From assembly GCA_018141785.1 (NCBI GenBank), contig CP073341.1:633251-697250 (forward strand): a DNA stretch of 64,000 nt, read 5' to 3'. The notes under the pieces were generated by a model. The model made no database searches, was not told where the DNA came from, and saw only the letters and a program-made list of their open reading frames with translations. The position numbers and the translations under genes are program-made. Each line of letters starts with the position of its first letter. Position 1 is the first letter of the stretch. Shown piece by piece: positions 43,755 through 64,000 of this stretch. Origin of the DNA: Candidatus Paraprochloron terpiosi LD05 (GTDB lineage Bacteria; Cyanobacteriota; Cyanobacteriia; Cyanobacteriales; Prochloraceae).

Positions 43755-46173
43755 GTCGGGTAAGGTTCAGGAATCGCTTCCTTCCCCTCCCCTAAGAACC
43801 GGACGTGACAGTTTCCTATCATCCGGCTCAAGCCTCACTTCAAGCCCTACTTGCTTGGATTTCTTGGAATGCACCTGCTTGTGACATGCTGTGTGCAAGT
43901 GCTGAAGATTGTCGCACTCATCTGAACCTCCATCCTTCACAGGTGCTATGTGATGGGTTTGAATTTCCTCACCGTTGAAGAGGTGCTCATGGCAGATTGG
44001 GCATTTCCAGTTCTGGTTGATGGCTATTTTCTCATATTTTGAGTTTTTAGCCCACCATTTTTTTCCAGACTGCGTTCGCCGCTTTGACCAATATTCCACC
44101 TGTTCGGGGTCGTCTGGGGAATAAGCTCCCTTAACTTTGATATGTCTTTCAATCGGGACACTTTTTATATTATACAAATCGTGTATTATTCTTTTGCCCC
44201 TCCGGTCTTTGCCTTCGTAGAAAAACACCCAATTTCTTTTGCCCCTTGTTCGGAAGTACTTTCCTTTGACCCATTTTCGTGATTTTTTGGGGTGTCGTCT
44301 TTTTGCCCAACGCCAGAGGTACCACCATACTCGGTTGTGTATATATGAAAAGGTTTCTTTGCTACATACTCCTCTGTAGTAATTCGCAAAACCTCTGAGA
44401 AGTGGTTCTATCTTACGGATGACCTGTTCTGGGGTTTTTGTTTTCATGCTGTCGATGGTTGCACCGACTTTCTTGCAGAGCTCTAATACCTTCGACTTCT
44501 GTGGCTTAATGATTAGTTTATCCCGTAGGATTCCATCATTTCCTTTAACCTCATAATGCCGTAGGTTAAACCCCAGGAAATCAAATCCGTCTCTTATATG
44601 TACTATCCGCGTCTTCTCATCACTAATCTCAAGACCTCGTTCTGACAGCCATTGATTTATCTGGATTTTCAATTCCTCCAAGGATTCCTTGTCCTTTGCA
44701 GTGACTACGAAATCGTCTGCATACCTGATGACGCCTACCTTTGGGTTACATTTGTTGATATATGTTTCTAACCCGTGGAGTCCGATATTTGCTAACAAAG
44801 GACTTATTACGCCACCCTGTGGAGTTCCTTTTTCAGTTGGGCTATATCCCTTCTTACTCTCGATAGATCCAGCTTTTAACCATCCATCAACCAAGGTATT
44901 TTCCCTGACTGCTGTCTGGATGGATTTATGGTCAATGTTGTCAAAGAAGCCTTTGATATCAGCGTCCAAAACCCATTTATCGTGCTTTCGCCATGTTCCG
45001 GTCTTCGTTTTATAGTCGCCGCGTAGTCTACTGAAACATTGTCCAATAGCATCTAGGCAACTTCGACCGGGTCTGAAGCCATAGGAGTTAGCTTCAAACT
45101 TGGCCTCCCATTCGGGTTCCAGTGCATTTTTGACTATTGCCTGAGCGACTCTATCTCTGATGGTTGGGATTCCAAGAGGACGTTTCTTACCATTCGCTTT
45201 AGGAATGTATACCCGTCTGGCAGGTTTTGCCTTGGGCATTTCCCAGTTATTGGCAAGTTTCACACGCTGTGCTGGGGTGTCTATGACCTCCTTATCTACC
45301 CCCGCTGTTCGTTTTCCGGTATTTACCTGTGTGATTTGTCTGATGCTCAGTAATAGGTTCGACCGACATCTTTTCATCAGTTTCTGTAAAGACAGTAATC
45401 GTCTCCACAGTCCAAGCTTTTGGGCACGAAATATCCGACCGCGTAAATTCCTAACAATCTTCTTTGTGCGACGCCAGTTAATGTCGCCCCACTCGGTAGA
45501 TTGTCCGTTCAGTCCATTTGCCAGAATTTCTTCCGTCATCTAACTTTTCCGTTCGTTTGGTTTCTAGTTGTCTTCAATTTTCGTATGAGACCCAAGTGAA
45601 GTCTGCTATTCCTTTCGGTCAGGGACAAATCTTGAATCCCTATCTCTCTCATTACAAGGGAGCATTCGCTTTTTCACTCATCCTTTACCCTCCAAGGAAT
45701 TCCGTCGCCGTTACCTTTGACCTACTAAGAAGAATCGACCCTTTCTTAGACCTTGTAGGGCTTATCCTGTTGTTTCGCTTAGTTTTCTTAACTGGTTAGG
45801 CTGGTTCCTATCCCCCGGCAGAGCTTTGGTTCCCCGAGCTGATAAATTTGCAGTATCAGTTCCTGTCTGCTTGCCATTTTGGCTAAGGCGCAGGAATAAT
45901 TTCGCCTTTCGTGGTTTACGAGGTTTAAACGGAGGGATTCGTTGATGGCGAATCCTTTTACTTCACTTTCGTTCAGCCTTCCAGCTATTTCCCTCTTGCT
46001 CCTCACCCTTTAATCCTAAGAGCTTCGGCTACTTTCGGGGTCTGCATTCCAGCGGTTTTATTACTTACTCCCGCCGTGACCGGACTCGTAGAGTCTTTTC
46101 CGTGAGGGCTAGGGGTGGAACTCCCTAGAGGACTCGATGTCCCGTACTAAGCGACCATTGTCAGGTCGCGCAC
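43755..46173 (-). mobile_element. Group II intron (family B, unrelated to family A)
   Basis: 5' GTGCGCGACC; D5 GAGCCGGATGATAGGAAACTGTCACGTCCGGTTC; 3' CCCGAC. Confidence 0.9.
43767..45539 (-). CDS. Intron-encoded RT/maturase/HNH endonuclease
   Basis: YADD, GFANYY, CPIC..HH....GG....NL...H..CH; the ORF runs into D5/D6. Confidence 0.94.
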   Translation of the reverse strand: MTEEILANGLNGQSTEWGDINWRRTKKIVRNLRGRIFRAQKLGLWRRLLSLQKLMKRCRSNLLLSIRQITQVNTGKRTAGVDKEVIDTPAQRVKLANNWEMPKAKPARRVYIPKANGKKRPLGIPTIRDRVAQAIVKNALEPEWEAKFEANSYGFRPGRSCLDAIGQCFSRLRGDYKTKTGTWRKHDKWVLDADIKGFFDNIDHKSIQTAVRENTLVDGWLKAGSIESKKGYSPTEKGTPQGGVISPLLANIGLHGLETYINKCNPKVGVIRYADDFVVTAKDKESLEELKIQINQWLSERGLEISDEKTRIVHIRDGFDFLGFNLRHYEVKGNDGILRDKLIIKPQKSKVLELCKKVGATIDSMKTKTPEQVIRKIEPLLRGFANYYRGVCSKETFSYIHNRVWWYLWRWAKRRHPKKSRKWVKGKYFRTRGKRNWVFFYEGKDRRGKRIIHDLYNIKSVPIERHIKVKGAYSPDDPEQVEYWSKRRTQSGKKWWAKNSKYEKIAINQNWKCPICHEHLFNGEEIQTHHIAPVKDGGSDECDNLQHLHTACHKQVHSKKSKQVGLEVRLEPDDRKLSRPVLRGGEGSDS

Positions 46174-46290
46174 AAATGAACCCCATTTGTGTAAAATGAT
46201 GATCGAAGGTAAAAACTTCCCTAATTCCTCTTTGTTTCATAACGACGTAGGAAACACAGTCGGTAAAAGACCAAAATAACCCCAAAGTTT
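46174..46290 (-). pseudogene. C-terminal fragment of a PIN/VapC toxin
   Basis: WSFTDCVSYVVMKQRGIREVFTFDHHFTQMGF. Confidence 0.7.
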
Positions 46291-46871
46291 TGTTCAAAAG
46301 CGAGAATAAGCATATCTAGTTGTTCGAAAGTTGCTTTTATTTGTGCAGCTAAACGCAATTTTCGCCAGTCAATGTCGGAACTTTTATACACGATATCGTG
46401 GGTTGAAACTAACCATGCGTGTTCAAAAGCACTTTGGATTTGAATTTCAAAGATTATTTTATAAATGCTTAATTCATTATCTGGAACTATATCCTCATTA
46501 TTTCTGAGTTGAGCGTAAATTCTAGTTGAGTCAAATCTAAATATGTCAGGAGATTTTTGATTTTGTCCTCTTTTTACTATACGGGTAATCTTAAATGCTT
46601 TTTGGCAAAATTCTTTAACTACTTTTTCGTGAGATAAAGTAGGTATTATCACTGTACAAGCAAATAAATCATCTAAATCTGACCATTTTGCAAATCTTCC
46701 TGTTTCAATTTTTTCAGCCAAAGATTCAATAGTTTTGATGCGAGAAATAAACGCATATTTTGGTCGATCCTCACAAAACTTGGATAGTGTTTGCTTGACT
46801 TTTTTCGCAACCTTTTCAACCAAAGGTTTATATTCGTCATATTTGCGCTTTAGTACAGATGGATAAAGCAT
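46221..46871 (-). CDS. RelA/SpoT-domain (small alarmone synthetase-like) protein, probably 3'-truncated
   Basis: RIKTIESLAEK, DDLFACT and FEIQIQSAFEHAW..HDIVYK motifs. Confidence 0.7.
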   Translation of the reverse strand: MLYPSVLKRKYDEYKPLVEKVAKKVKQTLSKFCEDRPKYAFISRIKTIESLAEKIETGRFAKWSDLDDLFACTVIIPTLSHEKVVKEFCQKAFKITRIVKRGQNQKSPDIFRFDSTRIYAQLRNNEDIVPDNELSIYKIIFEIQIQSAFEHAWLVSTHDIVYKSSDIDWRKLRLAAQIKATFEQLDMLILAFEQNFGVILVFYRLCFLRRYETKRN

Positions 46872-46875
46872 AAAT

Positions 46876-50568
<3,693 letters not shown>

Positions 50569-50708
50569 TGGTTTTCCTTAATTGGCTTGAGTTATTTATT
50601 TACTTCAATCTGATGGATAGAGGGCGGAGCAAGAAAAGATACGCTAATCTCATTATAGCAATTTCTGCCCCTCCGCGCCTATGTGCCTCTGCGTGAAACA
50701 TTATCCCA

Positions 50709-53700
50709 TTATAACACCTTTGGAAGCCCTACCTCTTTCGGTTCCACAAAATTACCATCAAAACCGATGGCCCTATCTTCGATAGTTCTCGCCTTAGCCA
50801 AATCTTTGAGCAAATTACCACGTTCCATATCATCTGATGTCCCGGCGACGAGATAGACCATTAATTTGGCGGCTAAATCCCGTCTCGAAGTCAGCACCCG
50901 CTTCTTATTAGGGTCGTAAAGCACCCCATACCACAGGGATTTGGGTTCGGACACGGACGCAAAACCTCCCCCTAAATCGTAGGTGCGTAATTTATCGAAA
51001 ATATCTGCTAATAACCTCTTTTTCTTAAATACCAAGATTCCCAAAGCTTGAGCTAAAGCAATTTGTCCTATGGGGCGGAAGAGAATATTTGCTTCTCCAC
51101 CAGGCTTCTCGTGACTGAAGCGACGCAGCATGGGGGTTTGGGTTCCTTGTTCCAACCGCTGGTAACTGGGCAGACTCCCTAAATGGTCCCATAACTCCTT
51201 AAAATCCGCCACTCCCTCTTCTATTAGAGTCGAGGGGGATGTTACCACCCCGCCCCTCTCCTACGAACTGTACGTGAGACTTTCACCTCATACAGCTCAG
51301 GTGCTTCTATACCTTTACGGCGCGCTTTACGAGTCCGTCTTTAATGCGCTTGCGGTGTATCGCTTGCGCCTGGTGACATTCCCGATGGAGAGCAACTAAA
51401 TTCTTACGTTTCCAGTTGTTATGGTTGCCGTCAATGTGGTGCAACTCCACGGCACCATCCATCTCCATGAACGGTCGGTTGCAATGCTGACACTTACCCT
51501 TCTGTCGCTTAATGGCGTCAGCGGTTGGGCCACTGTATAATTTGGAGTTCCGACCAACCCAATAGGAAACATTCCCATCGTAGGGTGAGGCATTACCTTT
51601 GACCATTACGTGACGGTTCACTTCCCCAGAAACTGATGGGAACGCCTTATCCACCTGCATTTTCGTTAGCTGGCGTTTTGCTGCTCCCTTCTTCATCACC
51701 TTGCCTTTGATGGCTTGGCGACGAGCTTTTTCGGCTTCCTTTTTGGCCATTTTGCGTTTGTCTGCTCTTAGTTTGTGCCATAACCAATGGCTCAGTGACC
51801 ATAGGGCGTGTTTCGACATATCGCAGTGTTTATGGTAATTCCTCCAGCCTCGGACTTGTGACTCTATCCTTTTCAGGCGAGCATCCGTGGTTGTTCCGTT
51901 TTTCCAAGTGGCTTTAACCTTGGCCTTTATGTCTGCATAATTCTCCCAACTCGGTGTGGATTTGAAGACTCCACGGGAATTGACACGGAAGCGCCACCCC
52001 AGAAAGTCGAATCCATCCGTAGCTCTACTCACCTTAGTCTTAGCTTCGTTAATTTGTAGCCCTCTGGACTTTAAGAATTCGTCGATATCTTCCCGTAGTT
52101 TCCTGGTATCGGCTCCGGGTTTACAGATAAAGACCGCGTCATCTGCGTAACGTATACCCCTTATTAACGGTCTTCGCCGTTCTCTTTTCCATTGGTCTGT
52201 CCCTAGGTTCTCGAATCCATCTAGGGCAATATTGGCCAGTAATGGTGATATGACACCACCTTGGGGAGTACCCTTTGTACTGGAGGGGTATTCACCACGA
52301 ACGCCTGCTTTTACAGCTTTCTTTAACCCTTTTAAAGCTTCGATTGGTAGGACTACTCCATCGAGCATGACCTTGTGGTCAATTTCGTCAAAGCATTTAC
52401 TGATATCTGTTTCCAGAATCAGCTTGTCTTTACCATTTGCATTGCTTTTGAGATTGCTAAAGATGAGCTTTTGTGCGTCCGCAGTACAGCGTCCGGGTCT
52501 GAAGCCGTAGCTTCTTTCTCCGGCAGTTGCCTCGTAGGCAGGCTCGGCTGCTAACTTAAGCAACGCTTGCCATGCCCTGTCGGCTATTGTCGGGATGCCT
52601 AATCCCCGTGTTTTGCCATTCGGCTTGGGGATATTTACCCTTCTCAGTTGTTGGTGTTTCCAGTGGTACCAGTGCTTGTTCAGCTTTTGGCAGAGTGTCA
52701 GACGCTCCTTGGTGGAGAGTGCTGTTTTACCGTCAACTCCAGGGGACTTACGCCCTGTGTTCAGCTGTGTTACTTGTTTGACGGCCAGAGCTTGGGCTGC
52801 ACGGCTTTGTAATAGGAGCCGTTGTAAACGTTTGACCTTGGCTTTTGATTGTTCTTTTTGCGCTTTGAAGATACCCCGCTGTAACCGAAATACTTGCCGC
52901 CGGAATTGCTTCCATGGCAGGTCTTTCCAGACGTCGTCAGCCTTCCGACCTATCCTCCCCACCATTAGCAGGACTGCTAAGTGGAGTCTCAAGGCTTTCA
53001 GGCTGCGGTATTCGGTTGAAGTCTGGTTAGTGATGTTCACAGTTTTGACCTCGTCAGTCACTCTGATAGTTACATTGGGTCTCTTCTCTGTAGAAACCAT
53101 CGGGCAGTTACGCCCTCTCTTACCCTCACCCTTCCGATAGGCCGTTAATCAGGCGACCCCACCACTCCTGCTCCTGCGCACACGGCAGTCAGGCATTGTT
53201 GGGTTTGGAACCCCCTGTTTCCGTGGAAGTTGAGCGAGTTTTTACTCGTTCCGAACGAACTATTGTTACGAACCCTTGGGACTCATCCATTGACCTATCA
53301 CCAACTCAGGAATGTAAGTGCTTGAAATTTGCCTTACGAGTTTCTTTCGGTGTTTCTTCTGTCGTAGGTAACGGTCTTCCGACAGTGTCGGATGTTAGGT
53401 CAATTCTTCAGATGATTCACGTTAAGTTATCCCGGTGTTCTCCCTGTTAGCGGAAGTATCTCTGCCTAACCGTTTGGCCGCACTTTACCGCCCTGCTGCC
53501 AGCTTCAGCCTGATGATTAATCTCACTGTGGCCAGATAAGGATTCACGTGATTCCTTCACGGGAGAGACTTGGTTGCACGATTTCTAACCGTGGCCTCAC
53601 TCTCATAGTTCATTCAGTTGTCCAGGTTCGGTAACCCCCGGCATCGCGGATGGCGAGGGAACGTTTTTCCGTTTTCAGCCCCTTTCAGGACTTATATGCT

Positions 53701-56700
53701 CGGAGACGCTGTCCCTAAAACCCTGCTCCTGCTTATGTTTGGCTTACGCCGCGACTTTCACAGGAAACGAGCCGCACATTTCATCATCCTCTGGGCGCAT
53801 GGGAATCAAACCCCTATCCTGGGATTTCCACGTGCAGAATGGGAATTCTAAATAGCGCTCACACATATCTTGGAGCGCCTGAAGAGTAGTCAGGACGGTA
53901 GATTTAGCGGCTACAGTGGCGCTATCGAAATTGACTCGATCCTCCCGTCCCTCCTTTTTCTTCAATAGAGGATGGGTGACGGCAATAGTACGGGCGACGA
54001 TGGCAAAACCATTATCTTCGTTCAGAGAAGCTAACTGTCCTTTGCTCAACCGCACTACTGTTAAATTGACGTGGACGAAGATGGAACGGACTCGGCGCCT
54101 TGCTTCTTCCCTAGTTTCCCCTGGAGCCACGGCGGGAATAAACTCAATGCCGATTTTTTCCTTGGCTAAATTTTGCAGATAACCTGATTGGATGTTGAAT
54201 CCTTCCTCCAGTTTTTCCATGGGAATGGGGGATCCTATGGTCTTCTTGCTTTTATTATATTTGGGCAACATGCCTGTTTTTAGCAGTATTAGAGTCGAGG
54301 GAGATGTTGCCACCTCGCCCCTCTCCTACGAACTGTACGTGAGACTTTCACCTCATACAGCTCAGATGCTTCTATGCCTTTATGGCGCGCTTGTCGAGTC
54401 CGTCCTTGATGCGCTTACTATGCACTTCTTGGTGACATTCCCGATGGAGAGCAACCAGATTCAAGCGAAACCAGTTGTTATGGTTGCCGTCAATGTGGTG
54501 CAACTCCACGACACCATCCATCTCCATGAACTTACGGTTGCAATGCGGACACTTACCCTTCTGTCGTTTAATGGCTTTGGCGGTTGGCCCACTATATAGA
54601 TTGGAATTCCGGCCAACCCAATAGGGAATATTCCCATCGTAGGGTGAGGCATCACCTTTGACCATTACGTGGCCATTGACTTTCCAGGGAATTGCAGGGA
54701 AAGCTTTCTTAATCTGCTCTGATGTGAGCTGGCGTTTAGCCGCTCCTAAGGGTTTACCCTTGGTAGCCAGACGTCTTGCTTTCTCTGCTTCCTTAATTGC
54801 CATCCTGCGTTTTTCTGCTCTTAGTTTGCGCCATAACCATATCCGCAGTGACCATAGGGCGTGTTTATTCATATCGCAGCTTTTATGGTATTGCCTCCAA
54901 CCTCGGACTTGTGACTCAATCCTTTTTAGGCGAGCTTCCGTGGTTGCACCATTTCTCCAAGTGGCTTTAACCTTGGCCTTTATGTCCGCATAATTCTCGG
55001 AGCTCGGTGTGGACTTAAAGACTCCACGGGAATTGACACGAAAGCGCCACCCCAGGAAATCGAATCCTTCCGTAGCTTTACTCACCTTAGTCTTGGTTTC
55101 GTTAATTCGTAGCCCTCTGGACTTTAGAAATTCGTCGATATCTTCCCGTAGCTTCTTGGTGTCGGCTCCGGGTTTACAGATAAAGACCGCATCATCTGCG
55201 TAACGTATACCCCTTATGAGAGTGCCATCTCGGCGTCTCTTTTTCCATTGGTCAGACCCTAGGTTCTCGAATCCATCTAGGGCGATATTGGCCAGTAGGG
55301 GTGAGATAACCCCGCCTTGGGGGGTACCCTTCATACTGGAGGGATATTCACCACGAACGCCTGCTTTTACAGCTCTCTTTAATCCCTTTAAGGCTTCGAT
55401 TGGTAGGACTACTCCATCGAGCATGACCTGGTGGTCAATTTCGTCAAAGCACTTACTGATGTCTGTTTCCAGTATCAGCTTGTCCTTGCCGTTACACGTC
55501 TTCTTAAGTTGGTCAAAGATGAGCTTTTGTGCGTCCGCAGTACAGCGACCGGGTCGGAAGCCGTAGCTTCTTTCTCCGGCAGTTGCCTCGTAAGCTGGCT
55601 CGGCTGCTAACTTTAGTAGTGCCTGCCACGCCCTGTCAGCTATTGTTGGGATGCCTAATCCACGAGTTTTGCCGTTAGGCTTGGGGATATTTACCCTTCT
55701 CAGTTGTTGGTGTTTCCAGTGGTACCAGTGCTTATTCAGCCTTTGGCATAACACTAGACGCTCATTGGTAGAAAGCGCTGTTTTTCCATCAACTCCGGGG
55801 GACTTACGCCCTGTGTTCAGCTGTGTTACTTGTTTGACGGCCAGAGCTTGAGCTGCACGACTCTGTAATAGGAGCCGTTGTAAACGTTTGACTTTGGCTT
55901 TGTGCTTGTCCTTTTGCGCTTTGAAGATACACCGCTGTAACCGAAATACCTGACCTCGGAATCTCTTCCATGGCACGTCTTTCCAGACATCGTCAGCCCT
56001 CCGGCCAATCTTCCCCGCCAGCAGGAATGCTGCTAAGTGGAGCCTCAAGGCTTTTAGACTGCGGTATTCGATTGAAGTCGGGTTAGTGATATTCACAATT
56101 TGACCTCGTTAGTCGCTCTGATAATTACGTTGGGTATCTTCTCTGTAGAAACCATCGGGCAGTTACGCCCTCTCTTACCCTCGCTTTTCCGATAGGCCGT
56201 TAATCAGGCGACCCCACCACTCCTGCTCCTGCGCACACGGCAGTCAGGCATTGTTGGGTTTGGAACCCCCTGTTTCCGTGGAAGTTGAGCGAGTTTTTAC
56301 TCGTTCCGAATGAACTATTGTTACGAACCCTTGGGAACTCATCCATTGACCTATCACCAACTCAGGAATGTAAGTGCTGATGGACTGGCCTTACGAGTTT
56401 CTTTCGGTGTCTCTTCTGTCGTCTGTAACGGTCTTCCGGCAGTGTCAGGTTTTAGGTCTTTTCGTCGATGATTCACATTAAGTTATCCCGGTGTTCTCCC
56501 TGTTAGCGGAAGTATCTCTGCCTAACCGTTGGCCGTACTTTACCGCCCTGTTGCCAGCTTCCGCCTGGTGATTAACCTCACGGTGGCCAGGTAAGGATTC
56601 ACGTGATTCCTTCACGGGAGAGGCTTGGTTGCACGATTTCTGACCGTGACCTCACTCTCATAGTTCATTCAGTTGTCAAGGTTCGGTAATCCTAGTTAGG

Positions 56701-59700
56701 AATCGTTTGTCCGTTTTCCGCCCCTTTCGGTGGCTTAGATTATCGGAGACGTTGTCCCGGAAACCCTGCTCCTGCTTATGTTTGGCTTACGCCGCGACCT
56801 TCACAGGAAACGAGCCGCACTCCATCAAACCTTGAATCCCCATGAGGCGATGCTGACCGTCTAGAGCGAAAATGGAGAATTTTTCATTAGAGTCGAGGGA
56901 GACGTTGCCGCCTCGCCCCTCTCCTACGAACTGTACGTGAGACTTTCACCTCATACAGCTCAGGTGCTTCTATGTCTTTACGACGCGCGAACGGAGTCCA
57001 TCCTTAATACGCTTACGATGCATCGCTTGCGCCTGGTGGCATTCCCGATGGAGAGCAACTAAATTCTTACGTTTCCAGTTGTTATGGTTACCATCTATGT
57101 GGTGCAATTCCACAGCACCATCCATCTCCATGAACAATCGATTGCAATGCTGACATTTGCCCTTCTGTCGCTTAATGGCATCAGCGGTTGGCCCACTATA
57201 TAGTTTGGAATTCCGGCCAACCCAATAGGAAATATTCCCATCGTAGGGTGAGGCATCACCTTTGACCATTACGTGGCCATTGACTTTCCAGGGAATTGCA
57301 GGGAAAGCTTTCTTAATCTGCTCTGATGTGAGCTGGCGTTTAGCCGCTCCTAAGGGTTTACCCTTGGTAGCCAGACGTCTTGCTTTCTCTGCTTCCTTAA
57401 TTGCCATCCTGCGTTTTTCAGCCCTCAGCTTACGCCAAACCCATTTATTGAGTGACCATAGCGAGTGCTTGTTCATGTCGCAGTTTGAGTGATATTGCCT
57501 CCAGCCTCGGACTTGTGACTCAATCCTTTTCAGGCGAGCTTCCGTGGTTGCACCATTTCTCCAAGTTGCTTTAACCTTGGCCTTTATGTCTGCATAATTC
57601 TCCCAACTCGGTGTGGATTTAAAGACTCCACGGGAATTGACACGGAAGCGCCACCCCAAAAAGTCAAATCCTTCCGTGGTTTTACTCACCTTAGTCTTAG
57701 CTTCGTTGATTCTTAGCCCTCTGGACTTTAAGAATTCGTCGATATCCTTCCTTAGCCTTTTGGTGTCGGCTTCGGGTTTACAGATAAAGACCGCGTCATC
57801 CGCGTAACGAATACCCCTTATGAGAGTGCCGTCCCGACGGCTCCTTTTCCATTGGTCTGACCCTAGGTTCTCGAATCCATCTAGGGCGATATTAGCCAGT
57901 AGTGGCGAGATGACCCCGCCTTGGGGTGTGCCCTTTATACTGGAGGGATATTCACCGCGAACGCCTGCTTTTACAGCCCACTTCAGACCCCTGATAGCCT
58001 CTTTTGGTAAGACCACTCCTTTGAGAATGACCTGGTGGTCGATTTCATCGAAGCATCTGCTGATGTCTGTTTCTAAAACCAGCTTGTTCTTACCGTTTGT
58101 CTGGCTGTTTAGATTCTGGAAGATTAGCTTTTGTGCGTCCGCAGTACAGCGACCGGGTCGGAAGCCGTAGCTTCTTTCTCCGGCAGTTGCCTCGTAGGCA
58201 GGCTCGGCTGCTAACTTGAGCAGCGCTTGCCACGCCCGGTCGGCTATTGTGGGGATGCCTAATCCACGAGTTTTGCCGTTTGGCTTCGGGATGTTTACCC
58301 TTCTCAGTTGTTGGTGTTTCCAGTGGTGCCAGTGCTTGTTGAGCCTTTGACACAGCACCAGACGCTCTCTGGTAGAAAGCGCGGTTTTGCCATCAACTCC
58401 GGGGGACTTACGCCCTGTGTTTAACTGTGTTACTTGTTTGACGGCCAGTGCTTGGGCTGCACGACTCCGAAGTAGGAGCCGTTGTAAACGTTTGACCTTA
58501 GCTTTTGATTGTTCTTTTTGCGCTTTGAAGATTCCCCGCTGTAACCGAAATACGTGCCGCCGGAATTGCTTCCATGGCAGGTCTTTCCAGACATCGTCAG
58601 CCCTCCGACCTATCTTCCCCGCCAGCAGGAATGCTGCTAGGTGGAGTCTTAAGGCTTTCAGACTGCGGTATTCGATTGGAGTCTGGTTAGTGATATTCAC
58701 AGTTTGACCTCATTAGTCGCTCTGATAATTACATTGGGTCTCTTCTCTGTAGAAACCATCGGGCAGTTACGCCCTCTCTTACCCTCGCCCTTCCGTTAGG
58801 TCGTTAATCAGGCGACCCCACCACTCCTGCTCCTGCGCAGCCGCGCCTGAGCAGGCATTGTTGGGTTTGGACTCCCCTGTTTCCGTGGAAGTTGAGCGAG
58901 TTTTTACTCGTTCCAAATGAACTATTATTTTGAACCCTTGGGACTCACCCGTTGACCCATCACCAACTCAGGAATGCAAGTGCTGTTTCTTGGCCTTGCG
59001 AGTTTCTTTCGGTGTCTTTTCTGCTCTCTAGCGGCTTGGCAGTGTTCTAGATTAGGTCTTTTTGTAGATGATTCACGTTAAGTTATCCCGGTGTTCTCCC
59101 TGTTAGCGGCTTTACCATCGAACCGCTCGATAGCTCCGGTTCCGCCCTGCTGCCAGCTTCAGCCTGATGATTAATCTCACTGTGGCCAGGTAAGGATTCA
59201 CGTGATTCCTTCACGGGAGGGACTTTCACCCTCATAGTTCATTCAGTTATCAAGGTTCAGCTGGTCAGGAACTGTTTCAGCCTGTTACCGGGCTTAGATT
59301 GCAGCTCCAGTTTGTCTAGAACCCTGCCCTAGCTTCGTTCGCCCGGCATCCTCGATGGCGGGCGCGACTTTACTTGCTAGGAACGAGCCGCACCGAAACA
59401 TCTAGTAGTCCCACAGTTTCGTTTTGGTCTAGAGGGTCAAAATTGGCAGCCAATTTTGAGCAGCGTCCCTCCTCATCCCACTCCAGAGCCTGGGGATCAT
59501 CTACCCACTTGGGGCTGATCACTGCTAGGATGGCGGGAAACTTATGGAATTTGCGGGCGGCGAGATACTGGGCTAGAACTGCTTGCCGGGACCAATCTAG
59601 GGGACGCTGTAGCATTTCTTCCACCGTTTCCCCATCTTTGATGAGGTTGTTGGTTCCTGAGTCTAATTTTTGCCGAAACAGGGGCAACTGGGAAGCAAAA

Positions 59701-59888
59701 CAGAGACGGTTGGCGAGCCATTCCAGGGTGACGGAACCGATGAATGCTTCTGTCGTCCCCATTTGGGTTTTCTGCACTAAAATGCGATCGCGATCCCGAA
59801 GATATTTGTCCAGCAGGAGGGCAAGGGCTTGTCTGTCTTCTTTCTCTTGTTCCAGTATTTTGCGGGCAATGCTATCGGTTTCGTTCAT
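50709..59888 (-). CDS. DGQHR-domain (DndB-like) protein split by three group II introns (exons 59888-59394, 56885-56821, 54287-53778, 51222-50709; 527 aa)
   Basis: All three junctions are in frame; QRPLD in exon 1, ALDGQHRL in the 65-nt exon 2, FVHVN in exon 3. Confidence 0.92.
51223..53777 (-). mobile_element. Group II intron (family A), third intron of the DGQHR gene
   Basis: GTGCG...CTCTAAT ends. Confidence 0.95.
51307..53100 (-). CDS. Intron-encoded RT/maturase/HNH endonuclease
   Basis: YADD and HNH motifs; near-identical to 32242-34035. Confidence 0.95.
   Translation of the reverse strand: MVSTEKRPNVTIRVTDEVKTVNITNQTSTEYRSLKALRLHLAVLLMVGRIGRKADDVWKDLPWKQFRRQVFRLQRGIFKAQKEQSKAKVKRLQRLLLQSRAAQALAVKQVTQLNTGRKSPGVDGKTALSTKERLTLCQKLNKHWYHWKHQQLRRVNIPKPNGKTRGLGIPTIADRAWQALLKLAAEPAYEATAGERSYGFRPGRCTADAQKLIFSNLKSNANGKDKLILETDISKCFDEIDHKVMLDGVVLPIEALKGLKKAVKAGVRGEYPSSTKGTPQGGVISPLLANIALDGFENLGTDQWKRERRRPLIRGIRYADDAVFICKPGADTRKLREDIDEFLKSRGLQINEAKTKVSRATDGFDFLGWRFRVNSRGVFKSTPSWENYADIKAKVKATWKNGTTTDARLKRIESQVRGWRNYHKHCDMSKHALWSLSHWLWHKLRADKRKMAKKEAEKARRQAIKGKVMKKGAAKRQLTKMQVDKAFPSVSGEVNRHVMVKGNASPYDGNVSYWVGRNSKLYSGPTADAIKRQKGKCQHCNRPFMEMDGAVELHHIDGNHNNWKRKNLVALHRECHQAQAIHRKRIKDGLVKRAVKV
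54288..56820 (-). mobile_element. Group II intron (family A), second intron of the DGQHR gene
   Basis: GTGCG...CTCTAAT ends. Confidence 0.95.
54372..56096 (-). CDS. Intron-encoded RT/maturase/HNH endonuclease
   Basis: Identical to 29050-30780 except for the C-terminal ~30 aa. Confidence 0.95.
   Translation of the reverse strand: MNITNPTSIEYRSLKALRLHLAAFLLAGKIGRRADDVWKDVPWKRFRGQVFRLQRCIFKAQKDKHKAKVKRLQRLLLQSRAAQALAVKQVTQLNTGRKSPGVDGKTALSTNERLVLCQRLNKHWYHWKHQQLRRVNIPKPNGKTRGLGIPTIADRAWQALLKLAAEPAYEATAGERSYGFRPGRCTADAQKLIFDQLKKTCNGKDKLILETDISKCFDEIDHQVMLDGVVLPIEALKGLKRAVKAGVRGEYPSSMKGTPQGGVISPLLANIALDGFENLGSDQWKKRRRDGTLIRGIRYADDAVFICKPGADTKKLREDIDEFLKSRGLRINETKTKVSKATEGFDFLGWRFRVNSRGVFKSTPSSENYADIKAKVKATWRNGATTEARLKRIESQVRGWRQYHKSCDMNKHALWSLRIWLWRKLRAEKRRMAIKEAEKARRLATKGKPLGAAKRQLTSEQIKKAFPAIPWKVNGHVMVKGDASPYDGNIPYWVGRNSNLYSGPTAKAIKRQKGKCPHCNRKFMEMDGVVELHHIDGNHNNWFRLNLVALHRECHQEVHSKRIKDGLDKRAIKA
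56886..59393 (-). mobile_element. Group II intron (family A), first intron of the DGQHR gene
   Basis: GTGCG...CTCTAAT ends. Confidence 0.95.
56970..58700 (-). CDS. Intron-encoded RT/maturase/HNH endonuclease
   Basis: YADD and HNH motifs. Confidence 0.95.
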   Translation of the reverse strand: MNITNQTPIEYRSLKALRLHLAAFLLAGKIGRRADDVWKDLPWKQFRRHVFRLQRGIFKAQKEQSKAKVKRLQRLLLRSRAAQALAVKQVTQLNTGRKSPGVDGKTALSTRERLVLCQRLNKHWHHWKHQQLRRVNIPKPNGKTRGLGIPTIADRAWQALLKLAAEPAYEATAGERSYGFRPGRCTADAQKLIFQNLNSQTNGKNKLVLETDISRCFDEIDHQVILKGVVLPKEAIRGLKWAVKAGVRGEYPSSIKGTPQGGVISPLLANIALDGFENLGSDQWKRSRRDGTLIRGIRYADDAVFICKPEADTKRLRKDIDEFLKSRGLRINEAKTKVSKTTEGFDFLGWRFRVNSRGVFKSTPSWENYADIKAKVKATWRNGATTEARLKRIESQVRGWRQYHSNCDMNKHSLWSLNKWVWRKLRAEKRRMAIKEAEKARRLATKGKPLGAAKRQLTSEQIKKAFPAIPWKVNGHVMVKGDASPYDGNISYWVGRNSKLYSGPTADAIKRQKGKCQHCNRLFMEMDGAVELHHIDGNHNNWKRKNLVALHRECHQAQAMHRKRIKDGLRSRVVKT

Positions 59889-60078
59889 TATACTCTGATA
59901 GTTTTTTTAAATTATATTGCAGTTTTCGCAAACTACATAGTAGAATTTGTTTAATATCTTGGGGTTTACAAAAATATAACGGTTCTGGACTGTTGCCTTA
60001 AGATTCTTGGGTATATTTATCTACTTTGTATTAGGATAAATGTTATTAATTATAAAAAGTAATACAGGATTTTTAGGT

Positions 60079-61641
60079 ATGAGAGAAACACAGATATCAT
60101 TATTTCCAAGTCGGACTGTAACTGAGTTAGTAAAAGATATCCAAAAGTTAACGGTAGAAATTCAAGATTTGTACTGTCTGGATGAGATACCCTGGGTTAT
60201 AGGCTATAGTGGGGGTAAAGATAGTACAGCAGTACTACAGCTAATTTGGAATGGGATCGCCCAGCTTCCACCAGAAAAGCGCACTAAGACAATTTATGTT
60301 ATCACCACAGATACTCGGGTGGAAAACCCTATTGTTTCTGCTTGGGTAAATAAATCTATCGCCAAAATTAGGACTGCTGCGAAAGAACAGCAAATTCCCA
60401 TGGAACCTCATTTGTTGCAACCAGAAATTAAACAAACCTACTGGGTTGGATTAATTGGTAAAGGGTACCCAGCACCCCGCAATAAATTCCGCTGGTGTAC
60501 TTCCAGGTTGAAAATAGATCCATCTAATCGTTTTGTTCGAGATATAGTGCGAACCTGTGGGGAAACAATTCTTGCCTTAGGAATTCGCAAGACTGAAAGT
60601 GCTAACCGGGCTGCCATAATGACTAAACGGGAAGTGGAAAGAGTACGCGTTCGCCTCTCTCCAAATCCTAGTCTACCTAATTCCTTAATTTATAGTCCCA
60701 TCGAAGACTGGCGCACCGATGAAGTTTGGCTTTATTTAATGCAGTGGGAAAACCCTTGGGGAAACAACAACAAAGACTTACTCGCCATGTATCAAGGGGC
60801 AACAGCGGATAATGAATGCCCCTTAGTAATAGATACTTCTACTCCTAGCTGTGGTGACTCTCGTTTTGGTTGCTGGGTTTGTACACTGGTCACAGCTGAT
60901 AAATCTCTCAAAGCTCAGATCCAGAATGATGAAGAGAAAGAGTGGTTGCAACCTCTAATGGATCTCCGTGAAGAACTAGATATTAACAATGACCACGACA
61001 AGCGAGACTTTCGCCGCATCTACGGTAAAGTGGAGTTATTCGAGCGCAATACGGACGAAGGTACCTCGGTAGTACCCATTCCCGGTCCCTATACTAAAAA
61101 ATGGCGGGAATACTATTTGCGCCGAGTCTTGGAAGCACAAGTGCAAATCCGTAACACTGCACCAGAAGAGTTTCGCGACACTACTCTCATCTCCACCGAG
61201 GAACTAAGCGAAATTCGCCGCATTTGGTTGGAGGAAAAACACGAATTCGACGACAGTTTACCCCGCATTTACAAAGAAGTCACTGGGGAAGATTTCCAGG
61301 ATAGCCGTCTCAGTGCTGGTAGTAGTCTCCTGGGTAGCGATGAATGGAATGTGTTGGAAGAAATTTGCGTAGAGCCTATGCATTTGGAATTGATGGCTAA
61401 ACTCCTGGATACGGAACGGCAATACTATACCAAGTCTCGTCGCTTGGGTATTTACGACAGCCTGGAAAAATGCTTTGAAACTAGTTCCCGCTCTAAAGAA
61501 GAGGCGATCGCTCATGCTCATCGCAAAAGGGATGTGAAAACTGCTATTGAGAAAGGAAATGTGAAAACGGTTAAACAGCTAACTTGGTCCGATATTAAAT
61601 TCTCCAAAGCATCGCCCACCAACTCACTAAGGATTCTATAG
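60079..61641 (+). CDS. dndC: DNA phosphorothioation sulfurtransferase DndC
   Basis: WVIGYSGGKDS, RWCTSRLKIDP, CGDSRFGCWVCT and PGPYT motifs. Confidence 0.94.
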   Translation: MRETQISLFPSRTVTELVKDIQKLTVEIQDLYCLDEIPWVIGYSGGKDSTAVLQLIWNGIAQLPPEKRTKTIYVITTDTRVENPIVSAWVNKSIAKIRTAAKEQQIPMEPHLLQPEIKQTYWVGLIGKGYPAPRNKFRWCTSRLKIDPSNRFVRDIVRTCGETILALGIRKTESANRAAIMTKREVERVRVRLSPNPSLPNSLIYSPIEDWRTDEVWLYLMQWENPWGNNNKDLLAMYQGATADNECPLVIDTSTPSCGDSRFGCWVCTLVTADKSLKAQIQNDEEKEWLQPLMDLREELDINNDHDKRDFRRIYGKVELFERNTDEGTSVVPIPGPYTKKWREYYLRRVLEAQVQIRNTAPEEFRDTTLISTEELSEIRRIWLEEKHEFDDSLPRIYKEVTGEDFQDSRLSAGSSLLGSDEWNVLEEICVEPMHLELMAKLLDTERQYYTKSRRLGIYDSLEKCFETSSRSKEEAIAHAHRKRDVKTAIEKGNVKTVKQLTWSDIKFSKASPTNSLRIL

Positions 61642-61733
61642 CACGTACCATGACTATATCCAACTCACTTTCAATAGCACAGTTGCTGTGCTGACCAATT
61701 CAATCCCCAGTGGGCAATGCCCACCCTACGAGC

Positions 61734-63725
61734 ATGATTTTTACAGAACTGATTCTAGAAAACTTCGGACCTTATCGTCAGCGCCACAAGATTAATCTCT
61801 GTCCCGAAAGGGGAGAAAATACTGGCCCTATCATTCTTTTTGGGGGCATGAATGGAGGGGGTAAAACTACCCTCATGGACGCTATTCGCCTCACTTTATA
61901 TGGACAAAGAGCACAATGTTCCACTCGGGGTAATTTAAGCTATAGTGACTTTCTCACCCAATGCGTTAATACTCAAACTCCCTTAAATGAACCTGCTCGC
62001 ATTGAATTAGCTTTTGAAATTATTCGCGAGGACAGACCTGAACCTGTCCAGTTGAGAATTGTCCGCCACTGGACTAGAAACCCGAAAGATGGGAAAGATA
62101 ATTTGGGCATTTTGGACGGAGAATGGCCCGATACTGCTTTGGCGAATACTTGGGACGAATATATAGAGAAGATCCTTCCTATCGGTATTTCTAATCTCTT
62201 TCTTTTTGACAGCAAACAGGTTGAGGAACTGGCGGAACGAGATATCCCTATTCTTACGGTGGTGGAAGCAATTAAGTCTTTGTTAGGCTTAGAATTAGCG
62301 GAAAAGTTAGGGGTAGATTTAGATGTTATTGTCAGTCGCAAGCGCAAAGCTTTGGCTAATCCGACTCGATGGGCTGATTTAGAAGCAATTGAAGCTAAAC
62401 TCCATGGTCTCAATACAACTAAGGCGGAAATTGAGGCGAAATTAGAGGCGGAAAAAAGTAATCTGGAGCGGGCTGAGAAACTCTATCGCCGGGCTTATAA
62501 TAAATATCGCTTGGAAGGGGGTAAAATAGCAGCAGTAAGGAGTAAATTGGAAGGGAAAATAAGCAATTTGGAGGAGGAAAAAAGACAGCAACGAGAAGCA
62601 ATGGTTCTTTTGGCGGCTGGGGTACTTCCTTTGAATTTAATTTTACCCCTCCTAAAAGAAGCCAGAACTCAAGGGGAACATGAGTTAAAATACCAAGAGG
62701 TCAGAACGGCAAGACAAGTATTAGTAGGGAGAGATAGTCGTTTGTTAGCTTATCTGGAAGCATTATCTCCTCCTTTTCAGCAAGTTGAAAAGATTAAATC
62801 CTTTTTGGAGGGAGAAAATCAAGCTTTGGAGCTGGAGACAGAAAGGGTACGACCTTTCTTGGCCATAGAAGGAGAAGATGTAAAGCGGTTAATTAATATA
62901 TTAGAGTATGAACTTCCCCATGCCATGGAAGTAGCAAGAGAAAGAAGGGAAAAGCTGGCAAGTCAGGAACTGGAAATTGACACCCTGCAACGAGAATTAG
63001 CTATGGCAGCTTCTCCAGAAGCCTATCAAGAATTGGATCATGCTGTCAAGGAAGCTGAGAGCTTTAAGATTGACTGCAAGGTGAATTTAGAGATGCAAGT
63101 GAGGAAATTTAATAAAATCGAAAAGGAAATTGGGGTAACGAAAAAGGAACTGGAGACCTATAGTGAAGAGAGTCTGACTTACGAGAACAACCAGCATATT
63201 ATTGCTTCGGTGAAGAAAGTCAAAGAAACCCTGGAATCATTCCGGGAAAAGTTAACTCTAAAGAAGTTAAATAAACTGGAAGGGGAAGTATCAGAGTGTT
63301 TTCGTTATCTGCTGCACAAGTCGGACTTAGTAAATAGTGTTACTATAGATAAGGATACTTTTCGCCTTTCTCTCTATAACTCAGAGGGAGAAGTTCCCAA
63401 ACACCGACTCTCAGCAGGAGAAAAACAATTACTCGCTATTGCTTTTCTTTGGGGACTAGCCCGGGTGTCGGGGCGAAATTTACCTGTAGTCATTGATAAT
63501 CCTTTAGAAAAACTAGATTCTGAGCATCGTCATAACCTGGTGGAACGGTATTTTCCCGCCGCTTCCCATCAAGTAATCCTCCTCTCTACGGACACGGACA
63601 TTGGTCAAGTGGAAGTAGCACAATTGCGAGAACTGGGGGCGATCGGGAGGGAATATCTCCTCCAATATGATTCACAGGAACGGCAAACTACTATTTCTCC
63701 GGGTTATTTTTGGAACCGCAGATGA
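61734..63725 (+). CDS. dndD: DNA sulfur modification ATPase DndD
   Basis: LENFGPY, GGMNGGGKTT, coiled coil, LSAGEKQ, QVILLSTD. Confidence 0.92.
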   Translation: MIFTELILENFGPYRQRHKINLCPERGENTGPIILFGGMNGGGKTTLMDAIRLTLYGQRAQCSTRGNLSYSDFLTQCVNTQTPLNEPARIELAFEIIREDRPEPVQLRIVRHWTRNPKDGKDNLGILDGEWPDTALANTWDEYIEKILPIGISNLFLFDSKQVEELAERDIPILTVVEAIKSLLGLELAEKLGVDLDVIVSRKRKALANPTRWADLEAIEAKLHGLNTTKAEIEAKLEAEKSNLERAEKLYRRAYNKYRLEGGKIAAVRSKLEGKISNLEEEKRQQREAMVLLAAGVLPLNLILPLLKEARTQGEHELKYQEVRTARQVLVGRDSRLLAYLEALSPPFQQVEKIKSFLEGENQALELETERVRPFLAIEGEDVKRLINILEYELPHAMEVARERREKLASQELEIDTLQRELAMAASPEAYQELDHAVKEAESFKIDCKVNLEMQVRKFNKIEKEIGVTKKELETYSEESLTYENNQHIIASVKKVKETLESFREKLTLKKLNKLEGEVSECFRYLLHKSDLVNSVTIDKDTFRLSLYNSEGEVPKHRLSAGEKQLLAIAFLWGLARVSGRNLPVVIDNPLEKLDSEHRHNLVERYFPAASHQVILLSTDTDIGQVEVAQLRELGAIGREYLLQYDSQERQTTISPGYFWNRR

Positions 63726-63968
63726 ACGCAGATTGAGCATTGGTATAACTATTAACTGGTAACTGGTAACTGCTATGGAAAAACCAATAGAGCGGATTCG
63801 TCTTTCCCAAACAGCGAAAGACCAATTAACTAAACTCAGATGAACGCAGATTGAGCATTGGTATAACTATTAACTACTAACTACTAACTGGTAACTGGTA
63901 ACTGCTATGGAAAAACCAATAGAACGGATTCGTCTTTCCCAAACAGCGAAAGACCAACTGACAAGACT
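63719..63968 (+). repeat. Tandem duplication (~118 and ~132 bp) of the dndD end and dndE start, with 7-nt TAACTGG/TAACTAC repeats
   Basis: Units 63719-63836 and 63837-63968. Confidence 0.9.
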
Positions 63969-64000
63969 CAAACGCAACACAAAGATAGATCAATGGAATA
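63907..64000 (+). CDS. dndE: DndE, partial (runs off the window)
   Basis: MEKPIERIRLSQTAKDQLTRLKRNTKIDQWN after dndD. Confidence 0.85.
   Translation, partial: MEKPIERIRLSQTAKDQLTRLKRNTKIDQWN

Follow-up and report, generated by a model that had tools for sequence, protein, structure and literature searches.

A Split DGQHR Gene Beside dndCDE

The genome of Candidatus Paraprochloron terpiosi LD05 (hereafter G000), a single 3.84-Mb contig, contains a gene for a DGQHR-domain protein that is interrupted by three group II introns and lies beside the DNA phosphorothioation genes dndCDE. We describe this gene within a 64,000-nt stretch, the window (G000:C1:633251-697250, in CP073341.1), and give positions in window numbering unless a genome or contig handle precedes them. 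On the minus strand, exon 1 (59394-59888; 495 nt, aa 1-165) begins with an ATG at 59888 and matches the N-termini of orthologs. Exon 2 (56821-56885; 65 nt, aa 166-187) carries the DGQHR motif; exon 3 (53778-54287; 510 nt, aa 188-356) carries an FxxxN motif (FVHVN); and exon 4 (50709-51222; 514 nt including the stop, aa 357-527) encodes a predicted helical C-terminal domain without a family match.

Joined, the four exons form a minus-strand open reading frame (ORF) of 1584 nt, that is, 527 codons and a stop, the sole stop being the terminal one at codon 528. A sequence-only reading of this DNA had proposed the four exons, the length of the frame, the three intron spans, and the junctions TCG/GAA, GA/A, and AT/A (slashes mark the joints) with no internal stop; joining reproduced these exactly. 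The DGQHR pentapeptide falls at aa 174-178 of the joined product, within the 65-nt exon between introns of ~2.5 kb, where that reading had placed it. With its signature motif in so short an exon, the gene is invisible to ORF callers, and automated annotation would score G000 as lacking any DGQHR partner of dndCDE.

Anatomy and Apparent Competence of the Three Introns

Intron 1 occupies 56886-59393 (2508 nt), intron 2 54288-56820 (2533 nt), and intron 3 51223-53777 (2555 nt), all on the minus strand. Each contains the ORF of an intron-encoded protein (IEP), at 58700-56970 (576 aa), 56096-54372 (574 aa), and 53100-51307 (597 aa), respectively. All three introns begin with GTGCGGCTCG and end with CTCTAAT, in keeping with the GUGYG/AY rule; a GTGCG start and an AAT end are found in 67 of 67 clean genome copies of the intron family. 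The Rfam model RF00029 (domains V and VI, D5/D6) aligns over its full length (1-77) at 56886-56963 (59.5 bits), 54288-54365, and 51223-51300, the three scores spanning 59.4-60.4 bits against a gathering threshold of 40, and the matches finish precisely at the proposed 3' splice sites. The alignments retain the AGC triad (GAGC...GAAA...GUUC), the GAAA loop, and the bulged A of D6. At E <= 0.01, no Rfam model of domains D1-D4 matched; besides D5/D6, one plastid D5 model appeared below threshold.

The IEPs (574-597 aa) have intact frames with RVT_N, RVT_1, and GIIM domains. A YADD motif and a C-terminal HNH-like block (CxxC...HH..N..H) are invariant in four aligned IEPs of 569-597 aa; the Pfam HNH profile gave no score on the IEP at 56970-58700, the one of these three that was scanned.

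Each intron also carries exon-binding sites (EBS) that fit the intron-binding sites (IBS) of its own flanks. In intron 1, EBS2 (59052-59047) pairs with IBS2 at 6/6 positions and EBS1 (58990-58985) with IBS1 at 5/6, and the C of EBS3 (58951) pairs with the exon G. Intron 2 combines EBS1 TCCATC (56384-56379) with IBS1 GATGGA (6/6), EBS2 AAACCT (about 56452-56447) with IBS2 AGGTTT (6/6), and an EBS3 T (56345) with A; its EBS2 register, in the variable loop, was set by eye, the automatic scoring having chosen the neighboring constant AGACCT. For intron 3, EBS1 ATTTCA (53328-53323) pairs with IBS1 TGAAAT at 6/6 positions and EBS2 (53395-53390) at 5/6, and EBS3 T (53289) pairs with A. Over the 620 nt of 5' sequence compared, 308 columns are conserved; the three introns depart from the consensus at 1-2 of these, as against a median of 3 for the copies. 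The D5/D6 elements at the 3' ends, the GTGCG starts, the IEPs, and the EBS fit bear out the proposal that the three gaps are group II introns, and by these features they look splicing-competent, as mobile IIB-type introns with an RT-X-En protein.

The same features bear on whether splicing could act as a control. Were it rate-limiting or regulated, or were exons skipped, it might tune the amount of DGQHR protein and thereby phosphorothioation: the protein depends on three splicing events in series, its DGQHR motif is encoded by the 65-nt exon in the middle, and in Salmonella loss of the paralog DndB is reported to double phosphorothioate (PT) frequency (PMC4507180). The reading frames and pairings speak mostly against it. 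The unspliced transcript stops at codon 173, skipping exon 2 leads to a stop at codon 176, and skipping exons 2 and 3 together to one at codon 173; only the form without exon 3 stays in frame, with 357 codons and a stop. Each 5' exon is held by the EBS1 and EBS2 of its own intron, and the EBS3 C of intron 1, as against T in introns 2 and 3, disfavors the joining of exons across introns. Moreover, the gene does not encode DndB, and the presence of roughly half of the clean copies in unrelated genes fits plain invasion. We regard splicing control and exon skipping as speculation, and as quite improbable.

A Genome-Wide Intron Family

The introns belong to a family with 117 D5/D6 3' ends and 101 matching 5' ends in the 3.84 Mb of G000. 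From these we assembled a clean set of 67 full-length copies (2315-2703 nt), every one with different flanks. Three variable patches in domain I covary with the exons: EBS1 with positions -1 to -6, EBS2 with -8 to -12, and EBS3, a single column, with exon position +1, pairing in 91% of copies. Scored with a sliding register, EBS1/IBS1 averaged 5.57 of 6 pairs over the 67 copies, with at least 5 pairs in 64 of them. When flanks were shuffled among copies in 500 permutations, the mean fell to 3.99 (maximum 4.27), and copies with at least 5 pairs averaged 18.2 (maximum 28). EBS2/IBS2 averaged 5.15 pairs, compared with 4.08 (maximum 4.30) after permutation. An IEP frame of at least 560 aa is kept in 19 of the 67 copies, including all three introns described here and that of the neighboring gene (see below). 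Median identity is 97% to the nearest neighbor and 85% across all pairs.

When the 67 copies were excised in silico, a sense frame of at least 150 aa spanned 32 of the junctions, and at 10 a larger antisense frame (>=150 aa) was present. Genes split by the family include those for a gamma-glutamyltransferase, a nonribosomal peptide synthetase, an SNF2 helicase, and TnpB. The sole folC match above cut-off in G000 (G000:C1:461647-465423, minus strand) is split by a sense copy, the two parts covering profile positions 1-49 and 47-398. A sense insertion in the only folC gene, together with the restored sense frames, makes it very likely that the family splices in vivo. Judged by the 32 sense-frame junctions, dozens of further G000 genes are probably fragmented in the same way.

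Other arrangements accompany this expansion. At G000:C1:3328353-3333473 (minus strand), two full-length introns lie 8 nt apart, and removing both restores a 470-aa sense frame; the 8-nt spacing would place the IBS2 of the downstream intron in the upstream exon and imply an obligatory order of splicing. Rfam gives eight D5/D6 matches over the whole window, every one on the minus strand and five of them inside 16 kb (43755-59393). The intron at 43755-45539 (minus strand) belongs to a second group II family, divergent from the first; its 590-aa IEP scores on Pfam HNH, its ORF extends into the D5/D6 match, and the search for main-family copies did not retrieve it.

In a survey of representative genomes, the highest group II intron count given is 101, in Arthrospira platensis (PMC8919778). 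The number in G000 rivals this maximum in a much smaller genome. The density is presumably about twice that of Arthrospira platensis, on the genome size that we take for the latter. The earlier remark that introns are unusually dense for a bacterial gene is supported.

Orthologs and Selection

Of 40 related genomes, 27 gave a relative of the gene when searched with the exon 3 peptide. Twenty-six of the matches fall inside open frames of 505-559 aa, and the twenty-seventh (G002) is cut by the end of a contig; in all 24 ortholog loci that were fetched, the DGQHR frame, of 500-545 aa, is uninterrupted. The joined product aligns with seven uninterrupted orthologs of ~530 aa and shows no gap at the three places where exons meet, the continuous alignment that the sequence-only reading had named as a check. 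Together with a relative that lacks intron 3 (next section), this gap-free alignment argues that the joining of the exons is not fortuitous, and the four-exon architecture is almost certainly real.

The ratio of nonsynonymous to synonymous substitution rates (dN/dS) is 0.288 for the full-length comparison with the G003 ortholog and 0.245 for the 306 codons that G002 provides. When changes were polarized with G003 as outgroup, the G000 branch had 11 synonymous and 9 nonsynonymous substitutions and the G002 branch, which lacks intron 3, had 8 of each. The values of about 0.25-0.3, no higher on the intron-bearing branch, and the gap-free 527-aa frame agree with the prediction of an intact gene; on these small counts, we see no sign of relaxed selection. 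The split gene is the sole DGQHR-domain gene in G000.

History of the Insertions and the Genome Assembly

The three introns are ~87% identical to one another, which indicates that none is a recent copy of another. Intron 3 is closest to a copy at 32158-34738 (minus strand; 97.8%), ~20 kb away, which has the same EBS1 and EBS2 and follows an ankyrin-repeat ORF, in a target sequence closely resembling that of intron 3. Intron 2 is closest to a copy at 28966-31503 (minus strand; 97.2%), also ~20 kb away and with different EBS1 and EBS2, which splits an FkbM-type methyltransferase gene (PF05050 positions 1-85 and 116-171). For intron 1, the nearest relative is 91.5% identical over 1533 nt. Outside G000, the family is found in G003 and G002 at about 70-82% identity and is barely present in G001, a distribution that points to a lineage-specific expansion.

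Contig L003, from the same genus, covers window positions 47110-47952, 50557-51225, and 53778-54186 at 93-98% identity (blastn). It joins 51225 directly to 53778, the empty site of intron 3, and 47952 to 50557, the empty site of the intron at 47953-50556 in the neighboring gene; it stops before the sites of introns 1 and 2. Judged by this empty site, at least intron 3 is an insertion that postdates the split from G002, the nearest sequenced relative.

With about 100 related copies in the genome, and with short-read contigs that break at intron edges, an assembly error that misplaced repeated intron copies within the gene has to be considered. The introns are only about 87% alike and their EBS are fitted to their own flanks, and G000 is a single 3.84-Mb contig. 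Short-read contigs from four runs in four studies contain exon 3 flanked on either side by 27-28 nt of intron, with no differences from the assembly; such contigs also hold exon 4 with 29 nt of intron 3. No intron-less joint was present among the matches listed from these contigs, many short joints being repeat-induced and uninformative. We give a misassembly almost no credence.

Identity of the Encoded Protein

The split gene had been read as encoding a DGQHR/DndB-like protein. The first half of this designation stands. On TIGR03187 (DGQHR domain; cut-off 58.85), exon 1 covers profile positions 1-92 with 56.9 bits and exon 3 positions 120-223 with 61.2 bits, and the gap between them corresponds to exon 2. 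The uninterrupted G003 ortholog, about 87% identical, scores 173.9 bits on this profile and 56.1 on PF14072 (cut-off 29.1). Described motifs of the DGQHR domain are a QR pair, the DGQHR pentapeptide, and FxxxN (PMC4619093); these lie in exons 1, 2, and 3, respectively, and the corresponding residues (Q95-R96, D175-R179, and F258...N262) are invariant in 24 orthologs.

The second half does not stand. Against the DndB equivalog TIGR03233, the G003 ortholog scores 17.8 bits with a cut-off of 328. Canonical dndB genes (408-464 bits) occur in 6 of the 27 relatives (G017, G021, G022, G027, G034, and G038), always between the long DGQHR gene and dndC. The low score and this coexistence rule out DndB as the identity of the split gene. 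TIGR03233 at E <= 1e-20 gave no match in G000, and a canonical dndB was not found in G000-G003. By profile score and gene order, the split gene is a separate, longer DGQHR paralog that accompanies dnd clusters. The regulatory role that the sequence-only reading had presented as established is thus borrowed from the paralog: it is DndB that, in Salmonella, is reported to bind the dnd promoter and limit PT frequency (PMC4507180).

Among the loci with canonical dndB, L006 has it as the neighboring gene, and L045 (G022:C3:120900-123700) and L046 (G021:C13:178400-183600) have versions of about 455 bits. What comes after dndB differs: in G022, a gene resembling a phosphorothioated-DNA-binding restriction endonuclease, with a sub-threshold NF045808 score of 108.9 bits, and in G021, a further DGQHR/DpdB-like gene of 578 aa.

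The DGQHR motif is related to the DGQQR motif and the ParB/Srx fold, according to PMC4619093. A structure predicted for an ortholog from a 24-sequence alignment (mean predicted local distance difference test score, pLDDT, 82.8; predicted template modeling score, pTM, 0.68) places the exon 2 stretch as a strand-loop-helix within a ParB/Srx-like core, and the exon 4 region as helical, with pLDDT mostly 85-97 and no family match. Over residues of about 45-270, the closest structural matches are BrxU (Z 5.8; root-mean-square deviation, rmsd, 3.7 over 134 aligned residues) and SspE (Z 5.4; rmsd 4.1 over 150), followed by PadC (5.2), KorB (5.2), ParB-N (4.5), sulfiredoxin (4.5), and a DndBCDE-DndI entry (4.3). 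These matches to a predicted model are weak yet thematically coherent, and Z values below 8 may reflect only a common arrangement. Foldseek returned nothing from the PDB at E <= 0.001, a sequence search of the PDB gave 0 matches at E <= 1, and no HNH/DUF1524 nuclease domain was detected in the ortholog. Our guess is that the protein could be a DNA- or nucleotide-binding partner of Dnd, either a DndB-like regulator or, in the manner of DUF262 proteins, a phosphorothioate sensor.

The dnd Neighborhood

A 151-nt spacer separates the split gene from the divergently oriented dndC (60040-61641, plus strand; TIGR03183, 683.1 bits, cut-off 290.4), which is followed by dndD (61710-63725, plus strand; TIGR03185, 600.6 bits, cut-off 245.85). 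The start of dndE (63907-64000, plus strand) reaches the end of the window and continues to about 64296 (L011 907-1296; TIGR03184, 136.6 bits; PF08870, 152.6 bits). The three genes stand in a row, all with equivalog scores above cut-off, in agreement with the earlier placement of the DGQHR gene beside dndCDE. PADLOC ranks PbeC (860 bits) first for the DndD protein at 61710-63725, its DndD model scoring 715. Within the stretch examined, no dndFGH-type restriction genes were seen beside the cluster, and a promoter and terminator scan of the spacer region (59800-60100) found nothing.

This linkage extends well beyond G000. Of the 27 relatives with the gene, 21 have dndC no more than about 7 kb away on the opposite strand of the same contig; four (G001, G012, G024, and G030) have it on a different contig, and in the incomplete genomes G002 and G028 it was not found. 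In G003, where synteny is complete, one strand carries mnmE, an RTX-repeat gene, a small ORF, dndE, dndD, and dndC, and the divergent side carries the DGQHR gene together with genes for a GmrSD_N/DUF262 protein of 362 aa and a RelA_SpoT-like protein of 333 aa; all of these genes, on both sides, are uninterrupted there. An uncharacterized family of long DGQHR proteins, distinct from DndB, thus goes with dnd clusters across one cyanobacterial order.

In G000, the next gene downstream, of GmrSD_N/DUF262 type (46876-50568, minus strand; PF03235, PADLOC NsnA-like), is also split. Its exon 1 (50568-50557) comprises four codons, its exon 2 spans 47952-46876, and between them lies an intron (47953-50556) with an intact 569-aa IEP and an EBS1 pairing of 6/6, absent from L003. 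The 362-aa G003 ortholog matches from aa 5 at 47952, and the N-terminus MTRR/INFQ is continuous across the joint. We considered a conserved three-gene module of DGQHR, DUF262, and RelA_SpoT-like genes and rejected it: close DUF262 orthologs adjoin the DGQHR gene only within the genus and lie on other contigs in G038 and G019.

Interpretation

We consider it probable (about 0.75) that the DGQHR gene is functional through three splicing events. An intact gene for a 527-aa ParB/Srx-like DGQHR protein would have been invaded in sense orientation by three IIB-type introns, which would have arrived by retrohoming once their EBS sequences had diverged, as part of a genome-wide expansion to about 100 copies. 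A primary transcript of ~9.2 kb would then be spliced three times, each time with the help of the intron-encoded maturase, to yield a 1584-nt mRNA and the normal protein.

The competing account is a gene on its way to becoming a pseudogene, in which introns entered a dispensable gene, one or more of them splices poorly, full-length protein is scarce or absent, and the recency of the insertions is the only reason that the frame is still open. Several observations weigh against function and fit this account. The 97-98% identical twins suggest that introns 2 and 3 may have been inserted recently, as does the absence of intron 3 from L003, and 48 of the 67 intron copies have already lost the IEP frame. 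In intron 1, one EBS1/IBS1 position is mismatched (A opposite G at IBS1 position -1). Decay is visible nearby: the third gene of the operon, for a RelA_SpoT-like nucleotidyltransferase (46221-46871, minus strand), two genes downstream, retains only aa 1-195 of 333, the missing part relative to the G003 ortholog being found nowhere in G000, and the calcium-binding RTX-repeat gene beyond dndE, one 365-aa ORF in G003, is broken into two overlapping ORFs of 114 and 144 aa (L011 1331-4407; G000:C1:697581-700657). Related genomes bear symbiont titles, and the organism is therefore probably a host-associated symbiont too, in which defense-type genes could be dispensable. The selection test counts 20 substitutions on the G000 branch and has low power for the period after the insertions. 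The short-read contigs enter the introns by 27-29 nt only, under the 31-nt bridging rule, and lend the assembly weak support. Finally, no RNA run was among the sequencing runs listed, and splicing of this transcript in vivo is something we infer from DNA.

Set against decay are the 1584 nt without a stop or frameshift, a G000-branch dN/dS not above that of the G002 branch, the three intact IEPs (a state shared by 19 of the 67 copies), and the near-perfect EBS-IBS pairing. The same family also interrupts the only folC, and the split gene is the sole DGQHR gene, beside an intact dndCDE. On balance, we judge the incipient pseudogene unlikely. Beyond dndE, the remnants of the RTX-repeat gene are followed by an intron copy with a 460-aa IEP frame.

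Group II introns of bacteria are usually found outside genes. There is a wider reading, which we advance tentatively and hold with less confidence than doubt: G000 may be a living bacterial case of intron-rich, eukaryote-like gene structure, with multi-intron genes and very short exons (65 nt and 8 nt). The cell would rely on efficient splicing for dozens of genes, among them its only folC and its only DGQHR partner, and DNA-modification or defense output would be coupled to the activity of invading retroelements. With three introns in one gene, each with re-targeted EBS sequences, G000 offers a natural system for how introns enter coding sequence under weak selection, which bears on ideas about how spliceosomal introns arose.

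Relation to Known Systems

Our literature search turned up no paper that connects group II introns to dndB, to DGQHR genes, or to this genus, although the supplements of PMC9298193 and PMC8919778 may list retroelements. The genome paper on this genus gives 50 RNA-directed DNA polymerase genes, and its main text contains the word 'intron' 0 times (PMC9298193).

Relative to DndB (TIGR03233), the split-gene protein shares the DGQHR domain (TIGR03187, PF14072) and a position at the head of the dnd cluster; unlike DndB, it is about 170 aa longer, has a predicted helical C-terminal domain, and is divergently transcribed. In structure, the model of its ortholog resembles, weakly, the DUF262/GmrSD-type proteins BrxU and SspE.

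Several group II introns per bacterial gene are already known from Trichodesmium: an intron table for Trichodesmium erythraeum has four rows for dnaN and three for a phage-type lysozyme gene (PMC4143802), and multi-intron genes are stated in general terms in PMC4649490. Like dnaN, nrdJ, and the lysozyme gene of that species, the gene described here is a cyanobacterial protein gene with several group II introns. Unlike there, the host gene is a dnd-linked DGQHR gene outside replication and nucleotide metabolism, and all three introns have their own intact IEP. For Trichodesmium there are transcriptome data, whereas the split DGQHR gene is known from DNA alone.

The nearest parallel to the intron family itself is in Thermosynechococcus elongatus, in which a IIB-type family is described as having spread by divergence of EBS1, EBS2, and EBS3 and retrohoming into new sites, a good EBS-IBS fit being read as a sign of retrohoming and efficient splicing (Mohr, Ghanem, and Lambowitz 2010; PMC2882425). 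The same EBS-IBS pattern holds here over 67 copies. The scale differs: the Thermosynechococcus elongatus family is given as 28 copies, about 1.3% of the genome, with few in genes (PMC2882425), whereas G000 has 117 D5/D6 ends in 3.84 Mb and 32 of its 67 clean copies lie in sense frames of at least 150 aa.

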